64,000 bases of DNA from Pseudovirgaria hyperparasitica (lineage: Eukaryota): NCBI GenBank assembly GCA_010093815.1, contig ML996589.1; one strand, 5' to 3'. Below are positions 7,127 to 40,554 of the stretch, one piece after another. The translations under genes and the position numbers were made by a program. Below the pieces are notes generated by a model that did no database searches, was not told where the DNA came from, and was given only the letters and a program-made list of their open reading frames with translations. Every line of letters starts with the position of its first letter. Position 1 is the stretch's first letter.

Positions 7127-7157
7127 TTATTAGTTAAGGGTAGCCCTTAACTAATAA
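7127..7157. repeat. 31-bp palindrome just before the LINE-B ORF1 start
   Basis: ttattagttaaggg-tag-cccttaactaataa; start codon (RIPed to ATA) at 7160. Confidence 0.95.
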
Positions 7158-7159
7158 AT

Positions 7160-8623
7160 ATAGCGGCCTTAGGCACCGATATACCCCGGTATATACCGGA
7201 TATACCCCCACCGGTACGATAGAAAAGGCCATATAGCGATATTACTAAGGGTAACCATATACCTATCTAAAACGTAGAATACACCTAAAGGCGCACGCCG
7301 CCATAGATAGACGGAATAAAGGGGACCCTAAGAGGGGAAACCCTTCTAGATCGTATCGACTACTAGGTAGTATATATAGAGAAGGAAGCCGGAGAGGGCT
7401 AGAAGACCCTCCTATATATATTCTAGAACCTTATCTAGAATCTAAAGGGAATTACGGAGGAGGAGAAGAAGATATAACTAGGAGGACTAGAGGACAGGCT
7501 CGACTAAATAGAGGCTAGCCTACGTAGAATCTAGGAGGAACTTACTTAAGGTAAGCGCCCTAGTATATAGGTATAAATAGTAGTAATACTAGAGGCTATA
7601 CTATAGGCCCCCCGGACCGGTAACGCGGCGTATAGTATACGCGTTATAATCTAGGATAAGGATACCCTAGTATAGGTCTAGTAAGCATCCCTAAAGGATA
7701 TAGTAAGTAAGATTAATAAATAAAAGGGAATATAGTTAAACGTCGTCGCCGCTAAACTCACGCTAGGAGGAGTAGTACTTACCACGATAACGAATATTAC
7801 GTAGTAGACTATCTTGCGTAATCCGAACGCGATTAGTAGTATCTTCCTAGGCGCCTCTATTAGGGCGGCTATATACCCGATATAGGTATACTCTATGCCC
7901 GTAAGCGGATAGGTTATTAGAGAAGAGGATATTACGCGGATAGAATAGTTAAACAAGCGAAAATACCTAGGGATTAAGATCGTAAGAGTATAGTAGAAGA
8001 ATATATAAGGGATTAAAACCAGATCGAAGGTATACTCTACTATAATAGTAGAGCTTAAGGACCCCGCCCTCGCGTATTAAATTATATAAGAGGGATTCCT
8101 AGCGGAAGGGGAGCTTCTTATAGCGGAACCATAGGATAGAGCATAGGCGATAATATAGTGCTTTAACTATTAGGGATACGGGTATACGGTATAGCGGTAC
8201 TCCTAAAAGACTAGGTATAGGTAGTATTAATAAGAATATAGTACCTAGGAGTACCCCTACGGGACACGAGGAGAGGGCTAGAGGGATAGAGATACGGCGA
8301 AGTACTCTAACTACGACGGTAAGTACCCGTCGTGGTCGGCTACGTACGCGAAACGTAAATAGGTTACTAAATATATCTACTTAATCCGGATAAAGGGAGT
8401 AAGATAGCTATAAATAATGCGATCTACTACTATTCCTCTCTTTACTATAATACTATTACTATAGACTACCTCCTTATAAGGAAGCGGTTAGGAATGGTAA
8501 ACCGTCCCAAGAAAGCTAATAATAGAACGGCCCTAAGGAATTACTAAGGCCGCCGCCGTACGAGGATAGTCGCGTCTTAGAGGAATAAATATATAGGTCT
8601 ATATATTCCCTAGCACCTAATAA
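7160..8623 (+). pseudogene. LINE-B ORF1 (gag-like, CCHC zinc knuckles)
   Basis: De-RIPed QCFNCQGYGHTxQRC near 8155 and a further CxxCxxxH knuckle near 8300. Its stop overlaps the ORF2 start (inferred ATGA, RIPed to ataa, 8620-8623). Confidence 0.8.
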
Positions 8624-11600: not shown

Positions 11601-11922
11601 CCTATATTATCTCTACTAGAGAGGCGTTCTAGATATATCTTTCTAGTGCGAGGACTACGGCCGGAGAGGTATAATACGCCACTACCTTACGACGTGCTCT
11701 AGCCTCTATACCCTAAGATAAGCCCTCGTCTATATAACGAGGACCTCTAATATCACGCGATAGCTTAATAAGTACCCTAAGGACGTCGCCCGATGGATAC
11801 TCGTACACCTTCCTCTCCCCTAGTTCTAGTAGACCCGCGTATATATACCGGAAGAAGCCTAATATATGCCGGAAGAACCCTAGTATACGTTAGAAGAACC
11901 CCGGGAGAACGGCGATTATTAG
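8620..11922 (+). pseudogene. LINE-B ORF2 (APE endonuclease, reverse transcriptase, C-terminal CCHC)
   Basis: De-RIPed AIQEP, LLGDFNLHH, DSDH, KAPG, RPIALLS, GIPQGS, GYADD, CEDCGRRGxxRHYLTTC. Length 3303 nt, the same as LINE-A ORF2. Confidence 0.85.
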
Positions 11923-11946
11923 TTAAGGGTAGCCCTTAACTAATAA
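11916..11946. repeat. 31-bp palindrome overlapping the LINE-B ORF2 stop
   Basis: In-frame TAG at 11920-11922 lies in the left arm. Confidence 0.95.
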
Positions 11947-12570
11947 TCTCCGCACCTATACGTGCTACCTAAGGGTAAACTATTATAATATAGGCTATAG
12001 ACCTATAGATAGCCCCTAGGGCTATATATATATAAAGAACGAGAGGATAGATAGAGCGTAGTTATGGATATGAGGGAGTTTTTCCTATTTATAGGTTTCT
12101 TCTTATATAGTAGCTTAGACTAGAGGAGGCATGCGCCTATAGAGTGGTACTCTACCTAGTTTACTAATATTATTATTATTATACTTCTAGATCTAGCTAA
12201 ATACGTTTATATACCTAAGTAGTACTATAGGTTTTATAAAGTCTAGAAGATAGAATTATATAATATCCTTATATAAAGACTCTATATCTAGGCCTATAAA
12301 ACTCTAGGAATCTTTATTATCTTTATCTTCCCTAGTACTATCTATCTCTATTATCTCCTTCTCTTATACTAGGTAGCTATATAGATCTTTAGATATAGAC
12401 TAGTATAGTATAGAGCTAGTACTAGATAGAGGTAGTAGTATTAGCTTATAGATAGTTATATTATTATTATTATCTTTATTATCTTTATTAAGAGGTAATA
12501 TATTCTAGAACTTTCTAGAACGTATAATTCTCTATATATACTTAACCTAGAAATATTACTATTTAAATAT

Positions 12571-12942
12571 TATGGAAGGCCGCTCCTACAGCCCCACATG
12601 TATGTGTCCCTGGCTCGATTACATGGCTCATTGTATATTTAAGGAGGGCGTTTTCCTTGGTCATTCTGCTCGGCACGCTTCCCCCATCACGAATATTCGA
12701 CGATTCGACCTTTCCTTACGTTCATGGGCCTCTATGGGTATTGATTATTAGGCTTAGCTATTGATAAATTGATTAAGAGTATTATATAGACCCGTCCTAT
12801 CGTAAAAGAGAACTAATAAGAAGTCGTGCGTTCAAAGAGAACTCATAATACCTGGGAGAGATACTTGTGAGTTCGTCGCGACTACTATACTAAGAACACA
12901 GCCATTTACAAAAAGGGACATACGTGGTAATAGCTTATTACA
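12571..12942 (+). repeat. 5' LTR of gypsy copy 1 (372 bp)
   Basis: Direct repeat of 23610-23981. Confidence 0.95.
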
Positions 12943-12946
12943 ATTT

Positions 12947-12963
12947 TAGAGGTCGTACCCGGA
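12947..12963 (+). promoter_or_regulatory. Putative primer-binding site
   Basis: tagaggtcgtacccgga (de-RIP TGGAGGTCGCACCCGGA), 4 nt after the LTR; identical at 50819-50835. Confidence 0.6.
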
Positions 12964-13444
12964 CCGCGAACTTACAGGGGGAGATTAGGACTCCGAAACT
13001 AGCTTAGGGGAAGTATATGGCGTGCCTAATAAGGTAGTCTAGACTTACTAGATCGAAGCCACGAGTCCGGAAAACAGGGAGTCTAGAGTCGCTAGGGGCT
13101 AGCCTCTTAAAAGTAGCCGTAAAAAGCATGCGCATGCTAACACGGGTAATAGCGCGACTCGAAAATGTCTTAGGGGAATAGGATAAAACAGGGCCAGATA
13201 AAGCAGCAAAGAAGAGTTCAAAAACGACAAATACAACCTGTTTAGTGCTACTATAGCTGTTATTCATAAACACGGCCACACGAGTACACCACTTTAGGAA
13301 CGCCTTATACGAAGATAATAACATAAGTAGAATACCATGAACCTTATATCGATAAAGACGATAGTAATAGTTCACCTTATAAAGGGATTAATTAACATAA
13401 AGAAGGGATAATAGGTGTTATGGGTAGACGCATTGGGCCAACCT

Positions 13445-13472
13445 TTAGTTAAGGCAATCCCTTGACTAATAA
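13445..13472. repeat. Degenerate copy of the 31-bp palindrome
   Basis: ttagttaagg-caat-cccttgactaataa; keeps the un-RIPed TGACTAA. Confidence 0.85.
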
Positions 13473-13557
13473 CCTTACCCCTAGCGTCTCTACTAGCACA
13501 CCTACTACTAGTAATGGTGCGATAGGAGCTTAAAACGACCTAGTAACTCGTAGAGAG

Positions 13558-16500
13558 ATGCTTAACTTCTTCGTAGCATTTGCGCGACAAGGAAGGATGG
13601 TACCTCTATCTACTCTAGCCCCCGAGCGCTTTGAAGGAATAAACATTACGGCCTTCCTTCGGAAGTACGAGGACATATATATAAACTATAAAGTTCCGCC
13701 TAATAAGAAGATAACCTCTCTACCGTTATACTACGAGGACTATCTCCGTCCTACTATTAAAGGAATGGGTGGGTTTTAGAAATAGTAGTGGGCCACACTA
13801 CGTAAAGAATTATTAAAGGAATTCTCTCTATTTGACTCCGCCCTCGAGGAAGGCACCATCTACTTTATCCGAAAATACGTAGAAATGGTTAAAGCAGACC
13901 CATCCTACTCTCTCCCCATGTACTACTCCCGGTATCGTGTTATTACGGAGAAACTTACGGCTAAAGGAAGCCTAAGCTCGTATTCGCGAATAGAGCTCTT
14001 CCTAGAAGGGCTGCCTAATAGTCTTAAGGCTCGGGCTATAGAGAAATATTAACTCACGATGGAAGTACATAGTTACGACTAGGTAATTATCTATGGCTTC
14101 GTATTACGAAAGGCTAGAGTACTTAAGGAACTAGCTCGTATTAACAAGCACTTAGCCGCATAAGAGCTGGCCATAGCCATATACCATAAATCAAAGATAG
14201 GGAGTAAGAAGACTAGCTTAGAAGAGCAGTTACATGAAGAAAGAAGAACTAATGAATTTAGCCACCCCTTTCTAGTTAAAGTATATATCGCGCTAGGATT
14301 GGATAAGTTCAACGAGATAGTAGAGAGATTTAGTAAACTAGACCTCACGTCAATTAAGATAAAGTCCTACTTTACCTCTAATCCCTTATTCTCATCCCTT
14401 AAGAAGTACGAACCTAAGCTACTTTCGGCTATTATTAACTAGTAGGCGCGAAGGCTAAATCTTTTAACACACCCCTAAGTACGAGGCATGCCTATAGAAC
14501 TAACGTAAGTTTATCTATAGAATTATATATAGAATAGAGAATACGTCTCCACCCGAGACTCCTAAGGAGGCGTTATAGCCTAGGATAGGCCTCGAAGACC
14601 GATCGTGTGCATCACGTACGGAGGAGATTACCTAATATATAGATGTCCGGAGATGGTAGGATACATTAGAGACGGATTACTAAATATTAACGGGGTGCGA
14701 GTATTCCGAGGGCGTTTCGGGGCAAACGGAGAAGAAATTCTATTACTACCCTCCTCGGTAGGGCCATAAGCTACCCTATAAGCTATCCGGAACTACGTAG
14801 TAACGGTTTAAAACGGCCTAAGCTAGTACGGAGAGGGAGTAAAGGTTTCTACGTCCGTAGTAAACATTAACGCTTTATAGGGAGTGCCGGTATATAGTAT
14901 TAGTGCAAAATCTATAAAGGGTCCCTACTAGGCCTCGGCGGACAGCGATTCGGAAGAAGAAGTTACGTCGCCCGAGAGTAAGAAAGATAGATATATAGAA
15001 TTCCACGAACGCTTCGACGTGGCTAGTAATAGATATATCCGCGAGGAAATAGCCCTAGAAGAGCCTACTATACTTGTAATATCTAGAAGGGGGATCACGA
15101 AGAGTACACCTAATTATACTAAGGAAAGAAAGATCGCCTATCTCCGCGGAATACGTGAAGGGTAGTATATAAGAATTATTAAGGAATAGGAGGACGGCGA
15201 GAAGAGTGGCGACTAGAGAACGTCTAAATAAGAGCTAACGGCGCCTAAGGATAAGATGGATAAAGGGGATGGCCTAAATCCTAGTTAAAAGGCACGTATC
15301 CGAGGCGTTAAGCTTAATAACTATCTACGCGAGGGACAGCGGCTAAGCATAGAAGCTAGCGAAGCATGGCTGGTACGCGTTCTAGGGACAACTATAAATA
15401 TTACTATTAGCGAACTATTAAGCCTTAATAGTAACTTACGTCGTGCGGTGTTCGAGAAGGGCGCCCCCGACTTCATAGCTAGAGAGGTCCGCGAGGCTCG
15501 AGAGGAGAGAGCTAAGAAGAAAGGAAGAAACGACCATGCCATGGCTCCCGAGATAAATAAACTTAATATATTAGCACCCCTCTATGCCACGGGGACGGCC
15601 ATTATATAATAAGACATTAATTAGCTTAAAGAAGGGATAGTAAGGCTAGTGGCCGAGTGTCCGAGGTACCCCGTGGAAGTTAGTCCTAAAAGGGCGACTA
15701 GTATAGTACTATTCGATAGTAGCGCGTAGGTAAATGGCATTCGACTAGATGCTACGAGGCGTCTCGGGCTAGCGATATCTTCGCTTCTACCATATATAAA
15801 GAACTCGAGTTTAGTTAGCGCTACTTAGTATAGTACTCTATTCGTGGGAATAGTATAGTAATGCCCTATCCGCATAGGTCGGATCGTTACGGCCACTTTA
15901 ATATTTATATATAGCGAACTTAATTATGACCTTATCCTAGGGGAGCCATATACTAGGCAGGCCTTACTTACGGTGTAGAGGTCAGCCTCCGGGTAAGTAC
16001 TCTTAATAGTCTACTCCGTATATAGATAAGAACGTGTAACCTTCGAAACTAGTCTAGACGAGTATATTCTAGTCTTAGAGAAGGAGGGTAACTCCGTGGC
16101 TAGAGACTAACTATATAGCGGAGTATGTTACTAGAAGCCGGAGTTAAGCCGGATTATTAGTTAAGGGCTACCCTTAACTAATAATCCGCACTAAATAGGG
16201 TCCGGTAAACCTACTAACGAAGGGGATAGGATATATTTTTATACGGATATAGAAATAAGTTATATAGAGTTGCTTTCCGAGAAAATCCGGCCTAAAAATA
16301 TTACTTAGTTATCGAGAAAAGATAACTTAGCCGCCCTAGTTACGGCGGCAAGGTACGCTGCCTTTATACATAAATAAGGTACGATAATAGAATAGCTTAT
16401 AGTAGGCTCCACCGGCCTCTAAAGACGGTATTCATCCGGGGTATTAAAGGGATTTAGTATAGCTACCATATATAAAAGAAAGGGAGTTAAAGTACACCCC

Positions 16501-19500
16501 GTGGATGACTCCGAAGCCCACCGAAAGGTCCCTAGGAATCCATTAGGGTATCTAGACTAGCGTGAACGAGCAATCGCACGGCAGGCACTTCTTCTAGCCG
16601 TCCACCTAGGCCTTAATATATTTAATAGGCTAATAGAGCCTCGAAGGGTAACTATCCCGCTAGAAACACGTCTAACGCCTCTACGTATAAGTTAGCTAAA
16701 GATTAGAATAGAGCTACGTCCCACGGAACTTAAGTTACTATATATAATCTTATTATATCGCGAGGAAGCACTAGTATAGGAATTCTTATACCTTAGTAAA
16801 TTTAACGAAGAGGTGGCATCTCCGTAGGAGATCCGAACGGTAGAACATAAGGTATAGTAGGCTAAGAACTTTAATATTCCTAGAGCCCTTTATAGGAAGG
16901 TACTCACGATCCTAAAAGAGCGTCTTAATAGCGGAAGGCTTAAGCCCTATAGTAGTCCTTATCGAAACGCCTATTTTCTCGTGGAAAAGAAGAAGGAAGC
17001 CAATAAGGAACGAGATTATAGGTTAATCAATTCGGCGATAGAAATCAACCGAGTTACCATTCGTAATACGGCCACGCCGCCCTTATGTAAAGAATTCTCG
17101 GAGCACTTTACGGGGATGGCCGTCTTAACGTTTACCGACTTCTTCTTAGGATACGATTAGATTCTATTAGTAGAGTATTACCGAGACTTAACGGGGTTTA
17201 TAACGCCCCTAGGATTACTACACGGGATAATATTACCTTAAGGGGCCACTAATTTAGTAGCTTAGTTCGTTAGGATTATGTTAACTATTATATAAGAACA
17301 CATCCCGGAGAGGGCTCTACTATTCCTAGATAACTTAGGTATTAAAGGACCTACGACGAAATATAACTCTAAGGAGGCCCTGCCTAGAATTCGTAGGTAT
17401 ATCCTAGAACATTTAATTAACGTAGATAAGGTTCTCGCGGATATAGAGCGCGCCGGATACGCCCTAAGTGGTAAGAAGACTTAGTAGTGTGTTAAAGCCG
17501 CTAACATTATAGGATACGTCTACGGCATTAAAGGGAGGCGACCGAGTAATAAAAAGGTTACTACTATTAGGGACTGGAAACCCTGTAAAAACACGACGAA
17601 TGTGCGAGCCTTCCTTGGCGTTTATATATATTTCCGGATATGGATCCCCGGGTACGCTGTTATCGCATTACCGCTATTTATACTATTAAAGAATGAATCG
17701 GCCTAGTAGTAGATAGCTAAGGAGTAGACCTTAATAGACGCGCTAAAGATAGCTCTAACTACTACTCCCGCACTAATAACGTTACGGTACGGGATAGATG
17801 CGGGAGACATAATCCTAGTAGTAGACTCTAGTAACGTTGGGTGGGGGGCTACGTTAATACAGGAGAACGAGGATTATAAATGTTAGCTATCGCGGTATAA
17901 TAGAGGAATGTGGTTAAAAGCTAAGAGAAACTACGATACCGTGAAACTAGAGTACCGAGCCCTCCTCCACGCGTTATAGAAGTTCCGGTAATACCTCTAT
18001 AGTACGCACTTTATTATAGAAATAGACGCGAATACTCTAGTCGCTTAAATTAACCGCACCGTAACTAACTTACTAGGGGCGCTCGTTACTAGGTGGCTCG
18101 CGTGGATTTAGCTATAGAACTTTATAGTTAGGCACGTACCTAGGAAGCGTAACGTAGTCGCCAACGGTATCTCACGGATACACGAAGGAGAAGAACTACC
18201 AGACGTCTCTACCTTTGACCTAGACGAGTTCGTGGATATGGCTCTATATATAGACGTACTAGAGACGTCGTTAATCAAGCCTATTAGCGGGAGAGATTAC
18301 ACGATAGGGATACTCGACTATACCGCCATTAAGTCTCCCTTAATAGATAAATATAGCGATAAATGGTAGAGGATTATAAAGTATCTTACTATACTCGAGA
18401 GGCTAACCGACCTAACTAACTAAGCGTATAAGGCCTTTATAACCGACTATCTAAAGTTCCTCGTACGTGACCGAATACTCTAGTAGAGAGGAGATAGGTA
18501 TCGCTAATATACATGAGTAATTGAGGATCCGAATACTAGGGCGTATATAATTACTACCACTTACGACGAGATAGATCATAGAGATAGCGAAGGGACCCTC
18601 GGAAGGATTAAGGATAAGTATTAGTAGGTAGGTATGCGTAGAGACGTGCGATAGCACGTGAAAACCTATAACGAATATTAACGACGAAGTAAGCTCCTCG
18701 GAGGTCTTAATAAAGGGCTCCACCACGTTATAACGCCTATTCTTTAGTAAAGAATATACTTAGACGTAACGGTACTACTACCTTCCATGGGGTATAGTAA
18801 AGTGGTATCTATACGAGAATAGCTAAGCGGATAGACTAAGGCGGAGGCATGTACGGTAGCCACGTCCATAGTCGTCGTAAAGTTCCTCTTTAAGAATATA
18901 ATCTATAGATACGGAATTATTCCTAAAATTACCTATAATGGTAGTAGAGAAAATATAGGTGCTATAGAGGAGCTCCTCTAACTCTATAGAATTCATTAGA
19001 AGGTTACGTCTACGTATAATCCCCGAGTAAATAGGATTATCGAGAGAAGTTTTATACTACTCGCTAATGCTCTCGCGAAGATAACTAATAGCGGATTTAA
19101 GAACTAGCCCGACCACCTCCATGCGGTCGTCTAGATAGATAGAATAACGACACGTGCTAGTATAGGGTATAGTACTATATACCTCGTGCTCGGCCATGAA
19201 CCAATCATGCCTATCGAAGTCGAATTCGAGTCGCTCCGAATACTCCCTTAGGACGAGGTGCGATCGATGTCTAACTTACTCGCTCTTCGAGCTAGATAAC
19301 TTAAGAGAAGATCCGAGGATCTTAAGGAGGCCCATGCCTACGCGATACGAACGCGTGAGGAATCGAGAGAGGCATAGAATAACGACTATTACCTTCGTTA
19401 AGAGTCGTTACTAGTTGATATAATTATCCTCCTATACGACTCGTAGTAATAGAAGGACATGGGGCGGAAGCTAAGGTAGCATTAGAGGGGGCCATATAGA

Positions 19501-19821
19501 ATCTAGTCCGTGTTTAATTATACTTATAAGCTCGCGGAGCTTAATAGAGCCATACTTAGAGGGACGTTTCCTAGCCATAGGTTAAAGAAATATTTTATGA
19601 GAAATATAAGTAACGAGAGTCATGACGAGCTCTCGCGACTACTAATTAGAAGAATTACCGAGGAAAATAAGGAGAGTAGCGATAAGGAAAACTATTATAA
19701 ATAACTTACGGAACACCTCGACGACGCCACACGAACCCGGGTGGAAGTGGTGATTCCTACTCCGCAAGGCTTTAATAGAGAGAAATATTTACGTTTCCCT
19801 AGAATCGATATCTCCTTCTAG
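13558..19821 (+). pseudogene. gag-pol polyprotein of gypsy copy 1 (single frame; true start may lie upstream)
   Basis: De-RIPed CITCGGDHxxxRC knuckle (~14610), protease LFDSGA (~15710), YKRKGVKVHPVD, RT LPQGATNSVAQFVR and FLDDLGIKGP, RNase H VDSS...ADGISR, integrase HHCC and GPY motif; no chromodomain. Confidence 0.9.
16154..16184. repeat. 31-bp palindrome (18-bp arms, 16150-16188) inside gag-pol between protease and RT
   Basis: cggattattagttaaggg-cta-cccttaactaataatccg. Confidence 0.95.
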
Positions 19822-20152
19822 GGGATAGAAGTTTTTTTAAGGAGGGAAGGAATGCTTGTAAAAGTAGTCTTATAACGATGAACTCTATTATCGAAAGAGG
19901 ATGATAAACCCTATCATTACTATAAAATAATAAAACCCATTATTAAAGTAAGCAATGCTCGAAAGAAGACATAATGGCGTTTACGCGAAATTCCACCTAC
20001 CACATATTAAAACCGGTCGTGTAATCGAAGCCTACCTATCGAAGGCCTATTTCGTTACTATAGAACGGGCCCTATTAGGAACTAATAAGGAAGAAAAGAA
20101 GAAGAAGGTATAAGAGAAAAAGATACTTATAGGAAGTCTTATAAGGATGAGA

Positions 20153-20255
20153 ATATACCCGGTATCTATTCATTTATAGATTCCGCTATATACCCGGTAG
20201 ACACATTTATTCATAGATTTCCTATATACCTAGTATATATTCATTCATAGATTCG
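20153..20255 (+). repeat. Three ~35-bp tandem units (atatacccggta..cattcatagatt) upstream of ORF3
   Basis: Units start at 20153, 20188 and 20224; also present in copy 2 (~58030-58130). Confidence 0.75.
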
Positions 20256-20477
20256 ACACGTATACGGGCCTACGGCCGTTGGCAAGGATCATTTATAAAA
20301 ATTACTATATACCCGGCATTCGAGGAGGCATAAAAAAGAGAACTCAAGATAGTATATAACTCTTCCCTCTTACACCTCTCCATATCTCCTTAATTAATAA
20401 AACCTCCTCCTCCACTTCCGCCTCGCTTAAACTACCTCTTCTTAGAATGTAACTCGCCGATAGAACTAATAATAATA

Positions 20478-23438
20478 ATGGCCCCGCCGAAGAAGAAAAC
20501 GCCTACCCGTGAAGAGTTATAAGATCGTTAAGCACTAATAAGATAGACGCGGTCCTAGTTAAGAGTCGTAAGTGCTAAAGCAGGGCCATCGACGGCTATC
20601 GTAGTATTAAGGCCATCTACTACTCCGCACGGATAGGCTATAGAAGCTATAGAAATAAATAAGTCTACTATTAACCGAATTATCGCCATCTAGGACCCGC
20701 AAGAGCGATAGGACTATATTCTAGACACGTTTAATAATCTCCTTCACATTACCAGCCTCATAGAATAGCTCTTAAGTAGTATAGTTAACCTCTTCTAGGA
20801 AGTAGGAGCCGTAATAGGGTATAGTAAGGTAAAGATTAACTCCTCTATTCCGAAAGAAGTCCACGAGATGATTCGTCGTAGAAGAGACACTAACTTCTAT
20901 ATCCTAAAAGCCAAAAATACGATCCTATAAAACTAGCGAAAAGACCTCTCTAATAATAACGGCTAGTCACTCTAATCCGCCCTCGGATAGCTCTAGTAAA
21001 CATAGAACTTTATAGAAAAGCTAGTAGCGCTCTCACGAGTGCGAACATGGGCGAGAGTAAGGAACTAGTTAAACGCATCCCTATGGTCCCGAATCGGCCA
21101 GGGATAGAAGGGAAGGGGAATTAAGGCATATCTTTAGAGCTCTAATATTAATGCCGCCCTAGCCAGCGATAGTAACGAGGACGGCCTATCTCTCTAGTAA
21201 CTCTTAAACTACCCTAGCCGATAAAATAAACTAACGTTCTATAATAAGACGGGACTTATTATCCCCGCTAGTTAATAGTCACGGATAAGTAGAATGGTTT
21301 ATAGGCCCGTTAAACACTACCTATAAATCAAAGAGATAAGTGTATCGCCTCCGCCTTAGACCTTACCGTCGCTAAAACCAGCGTAGGTAACGCCTATAGT
21401 AAAGTCCCCTCCACGAAGCACGCCTTCTAGTTTAGTAGCACGTCGTCTCTTCGAAGCTAGTCGTCCGTTTAAAGTAAGTATTCCTCCTACTACTACTAGT
21501 AAACGTCTCTTACCGGGCCATGTAAGAACGTCTTTAGTACCCGTCACGGCCATACCGATAAAACCCACTCGCGGACGTGCCTTATCTACCGGCCCTTAGC
21601 AATTACTAGGGGCGCCTATATAATAATCCCTAGTTATTCTTAGTTCGTACCCTAAGACGATAGCATTAGTCGAGGAAGAGGACGAGCCTAAGAAGTATTA
21701 ATACGCGCCTTTAGTGACGAAGACTTTTAAGGTAGCTACATTATTAAAGAAGAATTTCACGAGCATTAAGGGAATAGCCCTACTAGTACGCTAGAAAGCG
21801 TAGATAGGTAACATGGCTATTCCGTATAAAGTCTACTACAAGCATTACTAAGACGTAGCTAGAAAGAATAATATACTCGTTAGCGTATCCCACTTAAACC
21901 TAGTAGCAAGACTTAAAATAGTATATAAGTTTAGAGATAACGTGGGGGCCCTTAAAGTTTATAAGGACCGCTATACCTGGTTCACGAAGTACGCGCGGCC
22001 ACCTTATCCGATAGAGGCATTAGGTGTCTATCATTACTAGGCCCTAGAGACCCCGAAGTAAGTTATTAATATTAAAACCATCCTTACTAGTATCGCATTT
22101 ATAATTTAGAAGGAGGATAGTAGGATAGGCAGGTAATTCTTCGACGAGTGGGAACGTACCGGAAGTGTTAATATTAAAGGGCTCTTCGAGCCACTTAAAA
22201 AGACGACCTCCATACTTAATAAGAGTATTCTAGAGCTCGCGAGGGATGAATTTAATATATATAAGTACCACTAGTGCATGTTTAATAAGAAATCGAACTA
22301 CGGCTAGCTACGAACTATATACCACTCCTATATCTAATAGTTTATTAGGTAATGCCTACTTTACTAGCTTACCTATGTCGCTCTTCGGCCCGATCTTAAC
22401 TACTATCTAATCTCGTACCCGTACTATGCGAAGTCCTAGGATAGGGACGATAAGACGGGTTTTAAGCATCTCGATAACGCCATTAATCGAATCCTTAATC
22501 CTAGCGATAGACACGGGTTTAATATAATCTAGGGGAGTATTAGTCTTGACGACGAACGAAGTGACGACTATACTATAATCATTCCCCGCTCCTATAAGTT
22601 CTTAAACGAATGGTAGTTAAAGGCTAAGCTCCACGAGGGGGTCAATCGAAATAGTATAATCACGGCTATTAACGACAAGATCTATAATACGGACGATAGG
22701 AAACGATTTAGTCCCTTCGTCCCGGTCCCCTACTAGTCCCTTAAAGTACGTATCTCTAGCCTACTAATAATACACGGCGCCTAGGGTCCCGTAAAGGGTG
22801 GAAGACGCACGATGCTTCTATGGTATGTCGCGATTAGCCCTAATTACATGACAATGGAAGTGCCTAAAATAGGCACATGGGAATAACTCGCAGCAGCTTA
22901 TAGGAATTTAACTCCGGGACCCACGTCTCCGTCGGGATTTTCTAATAAATATAGCGCGATTCCTTTTGCCTTCCTAGCCGTAGTTTAACTCCCGAGTTTT
23001 AACGCCGTTAGTAATGTATTAGTCGGCCGTAAAAGATAGAATAGCTAGAAGGTAAAAGAAGAGGCAGCTGCGTGGCTTAACGCAAGTCCTTAATAACTTA
23101 AAGCCAAGGTAGACGCCTGGTTTAAGAAGGGCTCGAGGGTATTCGTGGAGACCTTTAAGAAAATAGTAAGGTAGGAAAGGCTAGTCTATAGGGATAGGTC
23201 GTTCTAGAAGGAATTTAACGAGGCGCGCGCCGCTAAGCGGCTAATTAATTTTAAGAAATTCGAGCCCGACGCGGGCCTAGATAATATTAAAGAGAACTTC
23301 TACGGATAAGAGAGGCCTAATAAACTATCCGACGAGGAGGAATCTAACCTCTCTAAGATAAGCGACACGATTCTTTAGGAGCTGGCTCGCGACCTCGAGT
23401 ACTAAGATTAGGCGCCTGAAAACCTACCTAATTATTAG
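20478..23438 (+). pseudogene. Gypsy ORF3, ~980 aa, C-terminal PhyH-like Fe(II)/2OG dioxygenase domain (RIP-inactivated)
   Basis: One frame from ATG 20478 (MAPPKKKTP); true stop is 23405, 23411 or 23438. Several internal stops are sense codons in copy 2. Motifs FKHLD (22467-22475), IQGSxSLDDE and HGAQGPxKGGRR (His 22773). Confidence 0.78.
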
Positions 23439-23462
23439 TTAAGGGCTGCCCTTAACTAATAA
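23432..23462. repeat. 31-bp palindrome at the end of gypsy ORF3
   Basis: ttattagttaaggg-ctg-cccttaactaataa; TAG at 23436-23438 is in the ORF3 frame. Confidence 0.95.
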
Positions 23463-23609
23463 TCCGGGCTAAGGTTTACCCGCGCCGAGAGGTTTACTAG
23501 GGGCGCATTTTATTCGTATTAAGGTCTTTCTTTTAGGCGTTCTTCACACGGTTTCTTACACGGTTACTATACTACTAAGGGCAGTAGTTCTATAGGCCGG
23601 GGAGGTATA

Positions 23610-23981
23610 TATGGAAGGCCGCTCCTACAGCCCTATATATATGTGTCCCTGGCTCGATTACATGGCTTATTATATATTTAAGGAGGGCGTTTTCCTTGGT
23701 CATTCTACTCGGCACGCTTCCCCCATCACGAATATTCGATGATTCGACCTTTCCTTATGTTTATAGGCCTCTATAGGTATTGATTATTAGGCTTAGCTAT
23801 TAATAAATTGATTAAGAGTATTATATAGACCCGTCCTATCGTAAAAGAGAACTAATAAGAAGTCGTGCGTTCAAAGAGAACTCATAATACCTAGGAGAGA
23901 TACTTGTGAGTTCGTCGCGACTACTATACTAAGAACACAGCCATTTATAAAAAGGGACATACGTGGCGATAGCTTATCACA
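23610..23981 (+). repeat. 3' LTR of gypsy copy 1
   Basis: Direct repeat of 12571-12942; ends tcaca, followed by TSD atat. Confidence 0.95.
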
Positions 23982-26220
23982 ATATATTATAAGAGTATAT
24001 TTTAGGTATATAAACTAGATACTAAGTAGCTATATTAATAGTATTAACGCGTAGTAGTAGATATAATAATTATAAGTTAAGATAGTAAATACTTTAAAAA
24101 TATAAGGCTTAGAATAATAGCTAGAATAGACTAGATATAGAGAGACTAGTATAGGTTACTATTAGCTAATAGACTATCCTTAGTAGATAGCCCCCTAAAC
24201 TTAATATCTAAAAATACTACTCTATATATATTATATATAACTTTAGTTTAACTTAACTATTAGTAACTTAATTCTACCCTAGAATTAAATTAGACTAAAG
24301 ATCTAACCCTTAGTAAGAGGCCTTAGTTGAACTAGACTAAGTCAATTCTAGAGAGGCAGAATTGAAGTTGGACTGATTGATAGGAACTCTGGGTAGACTC
24401 CTTCATTTCTTCCGTCCGTAGTCGATTCCATATCTGGAATAGCAAACTCTGCGGCGAGATAGTTTCTCCAGCTAGTATTGCTTCCAGGTCTGCAAGAATG
24501 ATCCTCCAGGAAACAAGGTCAACAACGAGATGGTGCGTAATGAGTAGTAAGTAGAGCTCCGCCCCAGTGCCCACTTAGTAAAGATCGGCAGAGAACACAA
24601 GGCCACGGTTTACAAGAAGCTGCTGCTGCCGTAAAGCCGCGAAAGGCGCAAGATCGGCATATGACTCCAACATCGACGTTTCGAACCGATGGTTTGAGGC
24701 ACTTGGTTGCGGAATGATTTGCATCCGTTTGGAATCAGTTTCCTTATAGAAACATGCACGGAGCATGGAATGCGTTTCCACAATTTTCGCGATAGTAGCA
24801 CGTATGGTCCCGACAGAGACTGCTTTGTTCATACGAAGATAAAAAGACTGGTTGCAACGGTAACCGGATTCGTCAATTGAGTGTTGACCGAGCTGGTTGA
24901 AGAACCATTGCTGCATTGAAGACGGAGCAAATGGTGCGTTAAAATCTTCGCTAAAGGTGGCTGCCGAGTCCGTAGCCACGGGAGACTTCAGTGCGACCTC
25001 GACCAAGGACTTGCTTTTTAGTAAGTTTGCGACAGTGACATTAATGTCTGCGGAACATTGGGCACTCAGCCGCATCGCTGAAATAGAGTCACCTCCATTA
25101 GCTACAAACGATCGTGCAAGGTTGATATCGGAGGCCGAGACGTTGAGGACAACAGAGCATGCGTGTTTAAGGAGTCTCTCTGCTTCGGTGACTGGATGCC
25201 GCAGAACAGCATTGCGATCAATATCGGTCACAAGGTTATACGTCTGCGGATCCATTCTGGATATCCAGTAATCTAGCTGTCTGCGACTGGTCTTCCCAGA
25301 TGAATCAAGAGGAATGCCCTTAAGCACAATCCAGATAGTCGGGATCATGTAAGAAGGTAAAATATTCCCGAGATAGCCCTCTAGCTCCACTAGATCATCT
25401 TTCACACTAGTCGTGAGCCGCTCTAGACTTATCTTATCATGCGGTGTTGTTGGTGAGTCGGAGTCTATAAAAGTGATACTAGTAGCCAGGGTCGATGAGG
25501 CGGAGGCACTGAAAGCATTTTTTACGACTATTGAATCTACTTCGTTGGTATATCTAACACTAATCAGGCCCACCAACCTATTGGCGCAAAGACTAGTCTT
25601 GGGTAGTAAGCATGCGGATTGTCGGACTTGACGAAATTGTGCAATATGGTTTTCAATATCGCCAAGCTCGACACGTTGGCCGTGAATTTTTACCTGCGCG
25701 TCCTTTCGACCAATGAACGTAAGTGATCCGTCCTTATTATAAGTAACCAAATCGCCCGTTCTATATAGACGGCCTTTTCGGCCAGTGCGATCTAACGCAC
25801 TATGAAGCAGCTAAGGGGGGTCCTCGATAAATGCGGAGAAGATGCTAGTGGGGGAATTAAGATACCCGGATCCTACCAAAGGCCCTTCGAGTACCAATTC
25901 GCCGATGCTACGTATTGGCACAAGCGATTGACCTGAGGCCGAGTCCACAATCCACGTGTTGACGCCGAGACCTATCCTGATTGTCGTCATGTCGCCGCCT
26001 GGACGAATGTCTGCCACAGTCGCGGTTGGTGTACATTCGCAAGGACCATACGAGTTCTTTAGCGTGACCAGCGAAGCCCACACCTTGGCTTGCTCTTCAG
26101 ACAAGCGCTCACCACCAAGGATAAGGGTGTCAAGAGATTGTATAGTCTTCTGCGGCAAAAGCGAGGCCGTAGAAGAGGTTAATTTAACGTGCGTCACACG
26201 GAAGCGACGGAGAGACCCGG

Positions 26221-26300
26221 CTGTTATCTGATCAGCAGAGCTCATGCACAAGAATGTTAACGCAGATATATAGCATCTTCGAATGTCCTCAAGAGCTTAC
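26221..26300 (-). other. Spliceosomal intron (80 bp) in NRPS A3
   Basis: GTAAGC...GCTGAT...CAG; removal restores DDLAGSLR. Confidence 0.85.
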
Positions 26301-26853
26301 CTAGGTCGTCACGCCGTTCTGCATCTGTGGGGATACATAAACAAGCCCCGCACTCCAAGGCCCCAAGCACATTTGACCAGGACACATCAAATGCATATGA
26401 TGCAAAATCATAGATGCGCGCGCCCGGTCCGAGGTTATGAGCACCATTTTGGTATCGTAGGGCACTGCTGAAATTTGAATGGCTGATTCTAACTCCCTTT
26501 GGCGTGCCAGTGCTGCCGGAAGTGAAGACAATGTAAAGCGTCTGAGACGGTTGCACTTCTAGAAGAAGTTGCAATGTCTGCTTATCAAACAACGGTCGGA
26601 GTGTGTCGTTGACAACGATGACCGCCTTCTCCTCGTATAATCGACTAGAAAGGTGCCTGTTGGTAAATGAAGACAGAATGATCGATGGCTCGATCTGCTG
26701 TACAATCTTGTACAGGCGATCTTGTGGGAGGGCGGGATCCAATGTCACGCAAGTGCCACCTGCTTTCATCACAGCGAGTATCGCAATAGGCGTCCACTTC
26801 GACTTCTCAAAGCATAGAGGAACAACAGTCTCGCAGCCGACTCCGAGATGCAC

Positions 26854-26939
26854 CTAGAAGCATGAGGGTATTAGTGATATTGATGTCTGGATGCAAGATG
26901 CACTGGAACCCTGAGGTACAAAGTGTAGTAATGACTTAC
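26854..26939 (-). other. Spliceosomal intron (86 bp) in NRPS A3
   Basis: GTAAGT...CTAAT...TAG; removal restores LAHHL-VHLGV. Confidence 0.85.
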
Positions 26940-27523
26940 CAGATGATGCGCCAGGCGAGTAGACATATCGTGCACTTCCGTATACGTCCACATACCGTCC
27001 CAAGCGTGGATCGCTGTAGCATGACGTTGTTTTCGACATGTATCAGCGATGAGATCGTGGACTAGAGCCTCTATTGTTGTCGGCACCTTTGCATTCCAGG
27101 TCCAAATAATATCGAGCTCCATCTTGCTGATCACCTCAATCTCCGCGATTCGTTTTGTGCTGTTTGAAGAGTCGCACAACTGGCGCAAAATGTGCTTAAA
27201 CTGGTCTGCCATGTTTGAAACACGGCTGCTGCCGATGACTTCGTCGTCATACTCAAATCTAAGCTTTAGACTATGCTCCTCCAATTCACACTCTACTATT
27301 AAGGCGTAAGATGCGAAGTCTTTAGAGGTAATTTCTTCCGCATCGTCGTTATCGTGAGCAACAAATAACAAGCTCGCTGGATCCTTTGTCTCCTCGAGAG
27401 GATTGATAAGTAGTAACAATTGGAAGTTGCATGCCTGCCTGCATTCATTGTTGATTCTTGAAATGTTCTATAGACCCTTTTGTTCGTATAGAATCATTTC
27501 AGTCATCTCTCTTTAGACCTAAT

Positions 27524-30500
27524 TATTATAAGAGAAACGTAGACGTAATTAAGGTCATTAAATATATTCTATAAGTTACATAGAGAACTAAGTTCTAGAG
27601 GACAGAGTCGAAGCTATTCAACCGTTTAGATACTAGTCCCGTTTAGAAAGTAGTATCTCTTACTTAAAGTACCTTCTAATAACACTCCCCTATACTAAGT
27701 ATATATATATATATATTTAGTAATATTAGAATAAAGGAAAGCTTAAAGTAAGTAATAGTAAGAGATAGTACTAAAGAATAAAGGAAAGAGGGGTACTAGA
27801 GAAATAACTCTACTATAAACTAATTATTACCTTTATTTAATCTAGTAGTAGTAGAGGTAGTTCTTTTATTTCTATATTAGTAATATTATTATAACTTATA
27901 ATATACTAGATAGATATAACTCTATTAGTAAATAATTTATAGACTATATAATAATATATAGCTATATATTTAGACTATACTATAATTTATTAGTTTTAGA
28001 TAAGAGCTATAATAGCTTAATTATCTATAAGAAGATAGAGAACTAGAATATTATAACTTATAAAGATCTCTTTTATATCTAGTAGGGCCTACTATAAGTA
28101 ACTTATAGTCTTTAAGTAGACTATATACTCTACTTTATAGATCGACTTAGTAATATATAATTATCTTTTACTATTCTAGGCTATAGAGCTTCTATTTAAT
28201 TAAAATATATATATAGAGATAGACTTTATAGTATTAGGGTCTAAACCCTAGGAAGTATCTAAGAATATATTAATTTCTATAGTATCTTTTAACTTCTTTA
28301 GTATAAGGTATTAATTAATAGTCTACTTAAGATAGTATAATATACTAAAGGTAATCTATATATATTATACTAACGGATTTATATTAAATATAGTATATAT
28401 ATCTACTATAAAAGTAAGATCTAGATACGTACTAGTAGTAAGGTAATTAAGTAACCCAATTAATTATATATATATAAGCTACTATTCTTAATTAATAATT
28501 TCTTCTAATTATATTAGAAAGGTATTTATATTAACTAGAGTCTTTCTACTATTATAGTCTATTATACTAAACCTCTTTAGAATATATTAAGAGTAAGCCC
28601 TCTAAGAGAGCTTAATTTTACCTTCTTATAATTAATTAATTTTAATACCTAGAATTAGGCGAGCTTCTCTAAGGTCCTTATATTTTATATAATTTATAAC
28701 CTTATATTTAAATTATTATATATATAAGCTCTCCTCTATAAGTAGAAGGTTATTAATATATATAGTAATAATAATATATCTAATAAAGATATATAGATTA
28801 AACTATAACTATTAAAATTAAAGAGACTAGAGAAGGTTATATAAGGTATAAAACCATTTCTAACTAGACTATTTTAATCTATAAATTACCTTTTATAGCT
28901 TAAGAATCTTACCTAGCTTTTCGAAGCCTAGTAGGTATCTTATATAGTTATTTTTAGATAGACTACTATTTAGATAGATAGTATTAAAGTTAATCTAGTA
29001 AATATACTTATTAAATTATATAGTCTATTAGAGTATAATATAGAGAGAATTATACTTAATAATAGATATAAAAGTTTTATTATAATTAAGACCGTGTTTC
29101 TATATAAAGCTCTATATAATAAGGTATATCTTATAAACTTTAGTATTATCTATAGTAGTCTTAATATTAAATACCTATCTAGAACTAACTATTATAGAGA
29201 TATTTATAGTAAGTAGAGCTTCTTACTATAATTAGTTAATCTTATAACTTCTTAGCTCTCTCTTAATAGCTATTTACTACTAATACTAGTTAGAAGAATT
29301 TCTAGTCTCTTTTAGATTTAAAGGAATATCTATATTTAAGATAGTATTAACTAATAGAGTATAGATTATTTCCTTCTCTTCTATATCTATAAAATTTATA
29401 GAGTTATTAAAATAAATTATATATTTATATTTCTTTCTAAAATAAGATATATTAGAAGATAATCTTAATAGATATAGATTTTTATAAGGTAGGTTATAGC
29501 TAGAGAAAGATTTAAATTTTAGTTAATTAGCTCTAGGTATAGTAGAAGGCATCCTACTATAAGAAAGGGTAGATAATCTTTATTAGAGTATCTAAGTAAG
29601 ACTTATTATATTATCTATATAGGGCTAGAGGTCCTATATATTTTAGACTACGACTAGTATATTATAAGACTAGGGTGGCCTACGACCGGCAGACTGCGTA
29701 CAGTCCTAATTTAAGGCACTAAGGCACTAAGGCACGCCGGAAAATCCACGGCTAAGACATGCGAATTTTCAACTCTCAAACCTGCCACCAAACGCGACAC
29801 TAGAGACTTATAAACCTATCTCGTCCGTGAGTATAGCCCTATAGAGGGTAAAAAGTATATGAAAATACTCGTCGTAGGCAGGGCTATAAAACTAGGGACT
29901 AGATTTTTAAATTAGGCCCTAGTTAATTTAATATGTGGCAAAAGGTGGTTTTTTATCGTGGTTTTAGTAAGGGCGCTAGCGGGCGCTAGACAAAACATTA
30001 TATCTTTTTATAATTCCTTTGGAATACTTCTCTATTATCCGACTCTTCTTTAGAGCTATCTCTTTCTATAATAATTAAGGAAAGAGATTACTATAGAAGT
30101 AGTCTTAGATTAAAGGGTATAAAAGTAATATCTTATAACTTAATAATAACCTTATAGTTAGGAATATAGTACTTATAGATTTTATCTAACTTACTATAGC
30201 TAACTAGAATACCCTTCTCTAATCTATAAAGAAGCTTACTATCTAGCTTTTATACTTCTTTTAGAATATATATATAGTAGATAACTCTAAATAGATATAA
30301 GTTTTAGATAGAAGGCTTCTTACTAAAGAGAGTATAATATAGTATATTAACTATTAGAAGAGAGGTATATAGTATAATATTCTTAATAAACGTTATTATA
30401 TAAATTACTTTAGCCTAGAATTTTAACTTAGTATTAGAAGAGAGAATAGATTTTACTAATATTTAAACTATATAGTTAAACCTTTTAGCTATTTCGTTTA

Positions 30501-32969
30501 ACTTATAAGAGTAGATAGAAGAGATAATATATATAGTATCTATCTTATAAAAGAAGTCTTAAAGACTTTTAGTAATATATTTACTATCTTAGTTAGATAT
30601 AAATTCTTTAATAGCTATATTAAACTACTTCTTAATATATATAAAGGATTATATAATAACTTTAGAAGCTTTAGACTTATACTTTATAAAATAGATCTAT
30701 ATAAAATAAGTTAATTCTTTAATAGAGGAGATATAGTACTATAATCTGTTTAGAGACTTATATAGTATTTTACTAGAGAGATTATTATAAACTCTACTAA
30801 ACTATATCTTATATTACCTATTTAAGCTTAAAGACTTCTTATATATAGATTTAGATATACTATAACTCTTATAGTAGAAGTTACTTAGCTACTTAGAAAT
30901 TATATTAAAATCTTTATAAAGTCTTTTAGAATTTATAATATAATAATAATCTATAGTATAATAGAATTCTTTATATAATATAAAATATACTATAGTATAT
31001 AATAGAAGCGGAGAAGATATATAGCGTAGATGAATCTTTATAAGGCCCTTATAGAATTTTACCTATATTACTTTAGATTTATAGTAGTTATATAAGAAGA
31101 GATTATTCTCTTTTACTCTTAAACTATACCCTTAATTTCTAATATAGAACTAGAAGAAAAGATATATAGAATTTAGTTACTTACTAAAGAGAATATTAGT
31201 AAGTTTAATCTTTTTTATAGAACTATCTAAGAGAATATAATCTAGGAAAACTATTCTAATACTATTAATAGAAATCTTCTAATAATTTATAATTAATATA
31301 TTACTAGAGGTACGCGGCTCTAGTAAGGTAAAGTTATCTATATAATCTAATATATACTATAATATACCTAAATTAAAGATCTAGTTATATATATCTATAA
31401 TTATATTAGAATTTATAAGAAGTCTAATAGCCTTAATACTTAGATCTAAAAATATTACTAAAATAAGAGACTAACTTACTACTTAAGATCGCTTACTATT
31501 TATATTATCTATAGTTATAAAGAAACTAACGACGTTATTATTAGAGTTAGAGTTAGATTTAGAATCTAAAATTTTAATAACTTTAGCTTTATTAGCCTTT
31601 TACTACTTACTTAAGAAGTTCTTTTTAGAAGAAAACTTCTTATCTAACTTACTTTTAGACTTATTATTATCTTTAGAAGTCTTAAGCTTATAGTAGTTCT
31701 AATACTTATAGCCTTTAGAATAGAAGCTACGTTTCTTATACTAGATATATTTAATATTAGAGATAGAAGTAGAGATAGAGAAGGAGTTAGACTTCTTTAA
31801 CTTAGAAGACTAACTAGACTTACCCTTATAGCTTATCTTATAGCTAGTAGTATTAGATTTAATACTATATTTCTTAGCTAGGTTAAGTATCTTTAGCTTA
31901 ATATCTTAAAATTATAATATATCTTAAGTTAATAAATTATTAATAATATAGTCTATAGTATTAGATTAGGAGATAAGAAAGAATAAGCCCTTAACCTCTT
32001 TAGACTTAAAGATTAGATATATTACTTTTATAACTATATAAGATAAAGTAGTATATCTTTTTACTATTTATATCTAGATATAATAGAAATTATTAATATA
32101 CTTATAGATATCTTCTCTATCTTTATAGTAGAGATTAGTAAGTAATCTAAATAAATATATTAAGAAGTTATCTATATTATAATTAAATTATAATAATAGA
32201 TATATCTAGATAGTAGCTACTATATTATAGAATATAAGACCTATAATAAGATCTTAGTATATTAACGAAAGTAATATAATTATTACTTTATTATTCTTTA
32301 TATTCTAATCTATTATATCTATATATAGATCTATAACTTCTATACTAAAAGGTCTAATAGCTCTACTAGAAACTTCTATCTATAATTATATATACTTAAA
32401 TACTATAGTCTATACTAATCTCTATTTAGGAAAATTCTCTTCTCTTAAAGATAGCTTAGAGAGAGAGAAAGAATCGAGTTTAAAGTTAATAGATATAATA
32501 ATTATTATTAATAAATTTCTTAAGTTCCTTCTCTTTCTTTATATAGAACTAATAGTTTTCTAGCTCTAACTCTTTCTTCTTTATTACTTATTTATAAGGA
32601 AGATAGTAAGAGTAAAAGAGATAGAAGAATAGTATAGATAGTAGAGGTTAATTATAGATAGAAGGAGTTAATAAAATAGAAGTAGATTAATAAAGTTAAT
32701 AAAAAACTAAGGTTTTAGAAGTAAGGTTAATTTTTATTAAAATAAGAAGGTTTTTATTAATAATAAGATAGTATTAAGCTTTTATAGTAAAATACCGGGC
32801 TTATAACCTATTATAAGAGAAATATAGACGTGATTAAGGTTATTAAATATATTCTATAAGTTATATAGAGAACTAAGTTCTAGGAGATAGAGTCGAAGCT
32901 ATTTAACCGTTTAGACACTAGTCCCGTTTAGGAAGCAGTGTCTCTCACTCAAAGTACCTTCCGACAACA
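27524..32969 (-). mobile_element. Ty1/copia LTR retrotransposon, complete, heavily RIPed, inserted in NRPS C2
   Basis: 161-bp LTRs at 27524-27684 and 32809-32969; 5-bp TSD CTAAT; ggttataagccc after the 5' LTR; PPT ggggag. De-RIPed integrase (TDQGGEY, NGxAERxNRT), RT (YKARLVA, YVDD, LIGSLNYL..TRPD) and RNase H (SKHIAxRYH). Confidence 0.93.
29581..30002. mobile_element. Probable solo LTR (422 bp) in the copia IN-RT linker
   Basis: GC-richer island flanked by the 4-bp direct repeat TCTT (29577-80, 30003-06). Ends tatta...cattata are consistent with RIPed TG...CA. Confidence 0.55.
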
Positions 32970-40523: not shown

Positions 40524-40554
40524 TTATTAGTTAAGGGCTGCCCTTAACTAATAA
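40524..40554. repeat. 31-bp palindrome overlapping the LINE-A ORF2 stop
   Basis: Minus-strand TAG at 40550-40548 is in the ORF2 frame. Confidence 0.95.

Follow-up and report, generated by a model that had tools for sequence, protein, structure and literature searches.

The window analysed here, a 64,000-nucleotide stretch of contig ML996589.1 from Pseudovirgaria hyperparasitica (GenBank assembly GCA_010093815.1), is fungal DNA with blocks bearing the marks of repeat-induced point mutation (RIP). It holds two copies, A and B, of one long terminal repeat (LTR) retrotransposon, each with a third gene, here called open reading frame 3 (ORF3), between pol and the 3' LTR (Table 1). Based on the comparison of both copies with intact relatives, combined with structure prediction and selection analysis, we propose that the window holds two RIP-dead Ty3/Gypsy copies of a lineage in which the third gene encodes, very probably, a PhyH-superfamily Fe(II)/2-oxoglutarate (2OG) oxygenase that serves the element.

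A repeat scan of the window detected four copies of one ~300-nt repeat, arranged as two pairs ~11 kb apart. Both elements are ~11.4 kb long, and their interiors (12918-23905 in copy A, 50790-61781 in copy B) are 93.6% identical over 10,993 nt. The pol frame of copy A, translated with stops as X, matches the Pfam families RT_RNaseH (E 8.6e-15), RT_RNaseH_2 (8.6e-13) and Integrase_H2C2 (0.0066) in that order, and the part of an intact pol from a relative (locus L059) that spans reverse transcriptase to integrase aligns to ~16459-19614. The succession of RT_RNaseH and Integrase_H2C2 in one frame inside an LTR pair identifies the carrier as a Ty3/Gypsy element, as an earlier sequence-only reading of this window had claimed. 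Intact relatives show the complete order of protease, reverse transcriptase, RNase H and integrase; in L011, Pfam detects an aspartic protease, RVT_1, RT_RNaseH, Integrase_H2C2, rve and SH3_Tf2-1. A primer binding site was not recognised, and copy A has no matching target-site duplication at its flanks; RIP may have blurred both.

Table 1 Positions of the retrotransposon copies, their third gene and its functional segments in the window
Feature	Position	Strand	Basis or remark
5' LTR, copy A	12568-12944	+	blastn match, 378 nt, to 23606-23983, 95.2% identical; one of four copies of repeat D1
gag-pol frame, copy A	13558-19704	+	Pfam matches; RIP-degraded, single frame, start approximate; last open piece ends at 19704
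pol-ORF3 spacer, copy A	19705-20477	+	alignment of both copies; non-coding
ORF3, copy A	20478-23438	+	986 codons, 63 RIP stops
N-terminal helical domain of ORF3, aa 1 to ~265	20478-21272	+	alignment onto model residues 1-204
Putative zinc-ligand motif CxC...CxxH	21696-21845	+	homologue conservation; window Cys partly Tyr or stop via G-to-A
Predicted double-stranded beta-helix oxygenase domain of ORF3, aa 533-856	22074-23045	+	
HxD of the presumed metal-binding triad, H664 and D666	22467-22475	+	model H630/D632, strand 628-631
Distal His H766 and R776, R777 (presumed 2OG anchor)	22773-22808	+	model H730, R740; strands 730-732, 740-743
3' LTR, copy A	23606-23983	+	local alignment; purine-rich GGGGAGG just before, ~23599-23606
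5' LTR, copy B	50500-50812	+	93.9% identical to 61488-61800
gag-pol and spacer, copy B	50790-58353	+	alignment to copy A
ORF3, copy B	58354-61314	+	986 codons, 63 RIP stops
3' LTR, copy B	61488-61800	+	local alignment

ORF3 opens with MAPPKKKTPTR in both copies and runs for 986 codons, starting ~770 nt past the end of the pol frame and ending ~170 nt before the 3' LTR. The 63 in-frame stops per copy consist of 40 TAG and 23 TAA in copy A and of 41 TAG and 22 TAA in copy B, without a single TGA, and 56 stop positions are common to both. At stop positions confined to one copy, the codon in the other is TGG (four cases), CAA (three), CAG (two), CGA (four) or GAA (one). Of 2961 bases, 182 differ between the two genes, 180 through transitions, and there is no indel. 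The RIP indices of ORF3, TpA/ApT 1.74 and (CpA+TpG)/(ApC+GpT) 0.38, compare to 0.77 and 1.22 in a neighbouring nonribosomal peptide synthetase (NRPS) gene. The damage to ORF3 is RIP that hit the whole element equally, and ORF3 is dead in the window along with the rest of the element. In these respects the sequence-only reading holds up: it had described one long sense frame starting MAPPKKKTP between pol and the 3' LTR in both copies, with TAA and TAG stops that are partly sense codons in the other copy, and the protein motifs it quoted are all found in the window where it placed them. One stop is not of RIP type: codon 591 of copy B (60124-60126) is TAA, a G-to-T transversion relative to GAA in copy A, at a position that is Glu in 34 of 34 homologues.

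The number of stops does not by itself mark the frame, as the other five frames contain 55-118 and reverse frame 0 only 55. The frame is instead proven by homology. Copy B, 88.5% identical to copy A and translated with X at stops, was used as phmmer query against 1.84 billion protein-cluster representatives, of which 703 matched at E<=1e-3 and 144 at E<=1e-30, the best being an intact protein of 911 aa (E 3.5e-86). Ten conserved columns, in which at least 27 of 34 homologues agree, have a stop in the window, and the homologues there carry Trp (four), Gln (four), Glu (one) or Tyr (one); Trp and Gln at such columns are what RIP of TGG and CAR codons predicts.

The 119 clusters assembled for the family are all unnamed or hypothetical, except for two that JGI labelled PhyH, and four of them bear a precomputed PF05721 label. 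Many homologues are intact at ~900 aa, and the proteins of intact relatives span ~900-1200 aa. The 13 fungi named among the clusters are, we take it, all Pezizomycotina; one record is labelled as moss. An alignment of 150 representatives was made, and a structure was predicted for the best intact homologue (P0003; 35% identical to the window protein). The model, with a mean predicted local distance difference test (pLDDT) score of 80.8, is made up of an N-domain of helices (residues 1-204, ~90), a Ser/Pro-rich linker that is disordered (205-364) and a confident C-terminal region (380-900, >90). The N-domain of an element-borne relative likewise folds at pLDDT 89.7, and a fold search with it gave no informative match. 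Several family members have basic N- or C-termini, and the N-terminus of the window protein that resembles a nuclear localisation signal is not conserved across the family.

In the model, the C-terminal half adopts the double-stranded beta-helix fold of the PhyH superfamily, and its structural neighbours are PhyH-type, in agreement with the assignment made by the sequence-only reading. The top structural matches are DUF1479/YbiU/GIG2 proteins, and further close neighbours include GriE, proline hydroxylase H11, SnoN/SnoK, KanJ, EctD, FtmOx1 and PrhA. AlkB and TET/JBP are absent among the structural matches listed, all of which are PhyH-type, and gave no Pfam match; their absence from these matches does not exclude them. 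A search of the ESM Atlas with the whole homologue returned PhyH clusters at 0.83, which we count as a lead only. PF07350 (DUF1479/Gig2-like) had no match in Pfam scans at E up to 10, 0.1 or 0.05; the ORF3 protein shares the shape of this family without belonging to it by sequence.

The catalytic residues are consistent with this fold. H630, D632, H730 and R740 of the model are each at least 90% conserved in the 150 sequences, and in an alignment of 36 sequences H630, H730 and R740 are invariant and D632 is at least 90% conserved. Enzymes of this class have their metal triad on the second and seventh core strands and their 2OG-binding Arg on the strand that follows, and the four residues match these positions by strand; R740 presumably binds the C5 carboxylate of 2OG, as known from PhyH precedent. 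All four are intact in both window copies (H664, D666, H766, R776/R777), within FKHLD (22461-22475), HGA*GP (22773-22790, asterisk denoting a stop) and GGRRTM (22797-22814), and in eight of eight intact element-borne copies, and degraded copies depart from them only by RIP-type changes (H-to-Y, D-to-N, R-to-Q/W/stop). The sequence-only reading had proposed HxD...H-x10-R; the HxD, His and Arg stand, with the correction that the invariant Arg is spaced H-x9-R and it is the next Arg that gives H-x10-R. Judging from the conserved triad and Arg, the ORF3 protein would be an active oxygenase. Upstream of the oxygenase domain, 36 homologues share C382, C425 and H428 with at least 90% conservation and have CxC in their consensus, and an alignment of 66 sequences contains four Cys/Cys/Cys/His columns conserved to the same degree. 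This conservation pattern suggests that the segment is probably a structural zinc site. Its CxC corresponds to KKY*YAP / KKYRCAP in the window (21690-21710) and its CxxH to VYYKH (21831-21845). In intact relatives, ORF3 encodes a soluble protein made up of a helical N-domain, a long disordered Ser/Pro-rich linker, the Cys/Cys/Cys/His segment and the oxygenase domain.

To place the homologues in their genomic context, metagenome contigs were scanned with the family alignment, which yielded 586 pattern stretches, 466 of them encoding relatives; the best 80 were kept with flanks of up to 10 kb as loci (L numbers), searched with the window pol and then with intact pols of the loci themselves, and Pfam was run on the neighbouring ORFs. 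A Gypsy pol lies directly upstream on the same strand in 24 loci and is missing in 14, i.e. at least 6.5 kb of upstream sequence lacks it, while 42 loci are too short to tell; the informative set thus comprises 38. Three of the 24 pol-linked loci retain an integrase remnant only and one is a permuted contig. Direct repeats of 127-357 nt, 91-100% identical and ~10.3 kb apart, enclose pol and ORF3 in 13 of 20 pol-linked loci tested. Fully open elements are found at L011 (gag-protease of 1059 aa, pol of 1214 aa, ORF3 of 986 codons) and L017 (same layout, LTRs 99.6% identical), LTR identity being 99.6-100% across these two. Also fully open are L059, with a 2365-aa gag-pol and a 1240-aa ORF3, and L039/L041, with gag, pol and a 1146-aa ORF3. 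One ORF at L013 was first taken as pol and proved to be a distant oxygenase paralogue; it was dropped from the pol queries and the loci were recounted. This 1044-aa ORF (L013 4938-8069; also in L014 and L024) is 22-23% identical to the oxygenase protein and is followed by an integrase remnant (8588-9568) and a regular 986-codon ORF3 (9764-12721), so that two diverged family members stand in tandem.

In intact relatives, 451-858 nt with stops in each frame lie between pol and ORF3, so that ORF3 would need expression of its own, through splicing or an internal promoter. Production from its own or a subgenomic transcript would fit this spacer. A search for longer, pol-fused forms of the family found none, which is weak evidence. 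Tandem-like repeats of ~35 nt occur in the spacer 5' of ORF3 in both window copies (20153-20253 and 58030-58130); they could be part of an internal promoter, or mere repeats.

Between the intact elements L011 and L017, the ratio of non-synonymous to synonymous substitution rates (dN/dS) is lowest in ORF3 (0.071), followed by pol (0.091) and gag (0.198), with dS in the range 0.33-0.58. ORF3 is under purifying selection as strong as that on pol, and since the gene is conserved as tightly as pol in intact relatives, the element seems to need the enzyme. Element-borne proteins of different lineages are 28-35% identical to each other and to the window protein, which points to an old association. 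In a tree of 49 C-terminal ORF3 domains, pol-linked members occupy every deep branch (the window pair; L059 and L074; L038; L039; L042; L015; L013; and a large clade around L011), and the pol-linkage label changes 8 times compared to 16.6 in shuffles. A pol tree of 12 of these ORF3-bearing elements shows matching groups where it is resolved and has the outlier in common. These patterns fit one old acquisition followed by co-descent with pol. Taken together, linkage to pol, enclosure by LTRs and dN/dS show that an old lineage of retrotransposons maintains ORF3 under selection as its third gene, and its enzyme would serve the element rather than the host.

Several observations weigh against this picture. 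Fourteen of the 38 informative loci lack pol, nine of them in two clades that have no element-borne member, which indicates that some members of the family are not in Gypsy elements. The pol-linked loci are not independent, as 14 of the 24 fall in the L011 clade, much of which comes from related samples, leaving ~8 independent lineages. Both trees are quick searches without an outgroup and with unresolved deep branches, the ORF3 tree having been computed with a quick IQ-TREE search, SH-aLRT support only and midpoint rooting. On the protein side, the window copies and most homologues stay below the Pfam PhyH threshold: the window proteins, with X at stops, gave no Pfam match up to E 10 (0 of 2), five of 15 homologues were sub-threshold and ten without a match, and among element-borne proteins scored against PF05721 (cut-off 22 bits) L074 passes at 25.1, L011 falls below at 17.1, and L059 and L039 have no match. 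Similarly, phmmer searches of the window proteins against PDB sequences returned chance-level rows only, and a profile of the 150 sequences gave low-complexity matches only, with the 'putative oxygenase' 4xaa at E 1.7. The catalytic residues are placed relative to the metal site at the level of model strands. Proteins with the nearest solved structures either work on small molecules or lack an assigned substrate, which does not favour a macromolecular target. Finally, the elements that carry ORF3 are heavily RIP-mutated, which speaks against effective protection from RIP by the gene.

The pol-less members are heterogeneous. Of the 14 loci, four are RIP-degraded and nested in the L011 clade and one pairs closely, as sister, with an element-borne copy; all five probably represent broken elements. 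The remaining nine have intact genes that evolve under purifying selection (dN/dS 0.14-0.19 at high dS; the ratio for L042/L044 was dropped for saturated dS), and their two clades also hold 'hypothetical proteins' of Venustampulla, Sclerotinia borealis, Rhinocladiella, Kalaharituber, Peziza and Wilcoxina. The two clades may stem from escape into other mobile elements or from domestication, or they may represent the source from which the elements took the gene. Pol-less homologues adjoin Helitron proteins (Helitron_like_N, PIF1, DUF6570) at L029 and L044 and a Plavaka transposase at L046. At L008, 72-nt inverted repeats that are 91.7% identical enclose a unit (6368-12774) of three ORFs, namely one with an integrase-core (rva_4) match, a 405-aa ORF without assignment that also lies upstream of the homologue in L010 (70% identical), and an intact oxygenase homologue; this unit may be a DNA-transposon-like carrier of the oxygenase gene. 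Homologous ORFs of ~1280 aa without Pfam match precede pol-less homologues on the same strand at L004 (1409-5245) and L012 (3263-7126), and the same ORF family occurs at L009 (19009-19710, minus strand); it may mark another kind of carrier element. At L032, a truncated homologue stands beside the host genes Hid1 and WD40.

As to what the enzyme does for the element, the role we place first, by analogy with the orchid Gypsy-AlkB elements and the fungal TET/JBP proteins described below, is the oxidative removal or change of a host silencing mark or factor, i.e. methylated DNA, RNA or histone, or a silencing protein. We offer this role tentatively, as a possibility short of an even chance. The extra domains, the disordered linker, the Cys/His segment and the basic termini suggest a macromolecular target. 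The sequence-only reading had put forward a possible nucleic-acid or chromatin modifier, for example one countering methylation or RIP; the N-terminus it pointed to, which resembles a nuclear localisation signal, is not a family-wide feature, and the RIP damage in the carriers speaks against effective protection from RIP. Modification of the element's own proteins or RNA we regard as rather unlikely. More doubtful than the silencing role itself is a broader scenario, in which an old, Pezizomycotina-wide Gypsy lineage would rely on its own oxygenase as a counter-silencing factor, aimed by the N-domain and the zinc segment, and the gene would also have moved to other mobile elements or been domesticated. 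Such moves would account for the two pol-less clades, the inverted-repeat locus and the Helitron and Plavaka neighbours.

Alternatively, the protein may be a small-molecule enzyme acting on an amino acid, CoA ester or other metabolite rather than on chromatin or nucleic acids, carried along either as selfish cargo from which the host cell profits or because it supports the element metabolically. The close structural neighbours with known substrates are all small-molecule enzymes, and for the top matches, DUF1479/YbiU/GIG2, a macromolecular substrate has not been established. However, metabolic PhyH enzymes measure 250-420 aa, and the ~500 extra residues of helical domain, linker and Cys/His motif set the ORF3 protein apart from them. 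Host benefit does not explain retention in LTR elements across lineages that are ~30% identical either, and selection as tight as that on pol is left unexplained. We consider a small-molecule substrate unlikely.

A non-catalytic scaffold with an oxygenase fold, e.g. an accessory protein that binds RNA or the capsid, is very unlikely, as pseudo-enzymes usually lose their catalytic residues, whereas here the triad and the Arg are conserved as described across 150 sequences and are lost only through RIP in dead copies. No better placed is the notion of a captured host gene that rides along passively and decays neutrally. LTR elements can pick up host fragments, both window copies are dead, and some members reside outside Gypsy elements, as at L032. 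Yet the dN/dS of ORF3 lies below that of pol, the catalytic residues are kept in every intact element-borne copy, and the damage in the window is RIP across the whole element alike. Moreover, ~8 deeply diverged element lineages keep the gene at full length, and the pol and ORF3 trees agree where resolved. The passive rider is thus already largely refuted. Among the outcomes that the sequence-only reading had named as overturning it is that homologues are ordinary single-copy host genes, with a neutrally decaying capture in this lineage only; this does not agree with 24 of 38 informative loci lying behind a Gypsy pol and with purifying selection in intact elements. An env-like or movement gene for leaving the cell is suggested only by the position between pol and the 3' LTR, which is that of env in retroviruses and errantiviruses, and is for practical purposes refuted by the lack of a hydrophobic segment in five proteins (maximal 19-residue Kyte-Doolittle mean 1.14-1.45), a model of a soluble helical and beta-helix protein, and no fusion or envelope protein among the structural matches.

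Elsewhere in the window, an NRPS gene lies on the minus strand at 33000-39500 (Condensation 2.6e-82, AMP-binding 4.4e-53, PP-binding), and a further NRPS piece with AMP-binding and Condensation, split over two frames, occupies 24000-27500 on the same strand; the two are separated by a block with a GC content of 0.20-0.29 (27500-33000). The 3' LTR of copy A ends ~350 nt from the last NRPS piece. A second RIP-degraded retroelement family is present at 7000-12500 (plus strand) and 40200-46199 (minus strand), with repeats at 499-1984, 40286-42080 and 63096-63847. It matches RVT_1 only (1.3e-16 and 1.2e-10), with no match to RNase H or integrase, and may therefore be non-LTR.

Fixed extra genes are rare in LTR retrotransposons, and each points to pressure from the host. 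Here, a large and almost entirely unnamed family (703 representatives) is found to supply the third gene of a Gypsy lineage widespread in fungi, and hundreds of 'hypothetical proteins' in fungal annotations are thereby assigned to transposons. If the substrate is a silencing mark, the gene would offer a handle on the contest between retrotransposons and genome defence as well as a new oxygenase activity.

Among known proteins, the DUF1479/YbiU/Candida GIG2 structures (PDB 7twe, 4rgk, 2csg, 2dbi, 6akz) have the highest fold similarity to the ORF3 protein at only 12-17% identity; they are stand-alone proteins of ~400-450 aa without its N-domain, linker and Cys/His segment. Compared with PhyH proper (PF05721: phytanoyl-CoA hydroxylase, EctD, GriE, KanJ, SnoN), the ORF3 protein is three times longer, resides in a retrotransposon and mostly scores sub-threshold. 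Boty/BcGypsy1 of Botrytis cinerea is likewise a fungal Gypsy element with an additional gene, brtn (PMC8365987, accessible part); brtn is antisense by the title of a paper cited there, and the same part of PMC8365987 draws no oxygenase link, so that it is set apart here by description. Literature outside subscription journals and Repbase, including the accessible parts of PMC3248453, PMC8365987 and PMC5987419, did not yield any account of an LTR retrotransposon in fungi that carries a PhyH-type gene.

The closest parallel is found in Phalaenopsis, where, according to the accessible part of PMC9289625, Ty3/Gypsy elements carry an extra ORF for an AlkB-type 2OG-dependent dioxygenase, shown to be an m6A RNA demethylase and proposed to counter host surveillance of the element. 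Both systems are Gypsy LTR retrotransposons with an additional Fe(II)/2OG oxygenase ORF. They differ in enzyme superfamily (AlkB there, PhyH here) and host (plants there, ascomycete fungi here), and in age: the orchid gene is a recent acquisition in elements of 25 kb, as far as that source extends, whereas the copies described here, known from sequence, are only 28-35% identical to one another, which points to an old association. Fungal DNA transposons provide the second parallel, as their TET/JBP proteins are also 2OG dioxygenases with an HxD...H triad encoded by fungal mobile elements, thought to serve the transposon against cytosine methylation or hypermutation (PMC12730594, accessible part). 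Their carriers, in the same account, are DNA transposons and Helitrons, mostly of Basidiomycota, in contrast to the LTR retrotransposon and PhyH-type fold found here.

With oxygenases known from orchid Gypsy elements and dioxygenases from fungal transposons, the kind of system is not new. What is new is a PhyH-superfamily enzyme, DUF1479/YbiU-like in shape and with an orphan N-domain, together with its ascomycete LTR-retrotransposon carrier and its apparent age and breadth. The same 2025 survey, in its accessible part, found no fungal retrotransposon with a TET/JBP dioxygenase (PMC12730594), a gap that the PhyH-type family may fill by means of a different enzyme. If the counter-silencing reading is true, ORF3 would be the retrotransposon counterpart of the TET/JBP proteins of fungal DNA transposons, drawn from a different oxygenase family.

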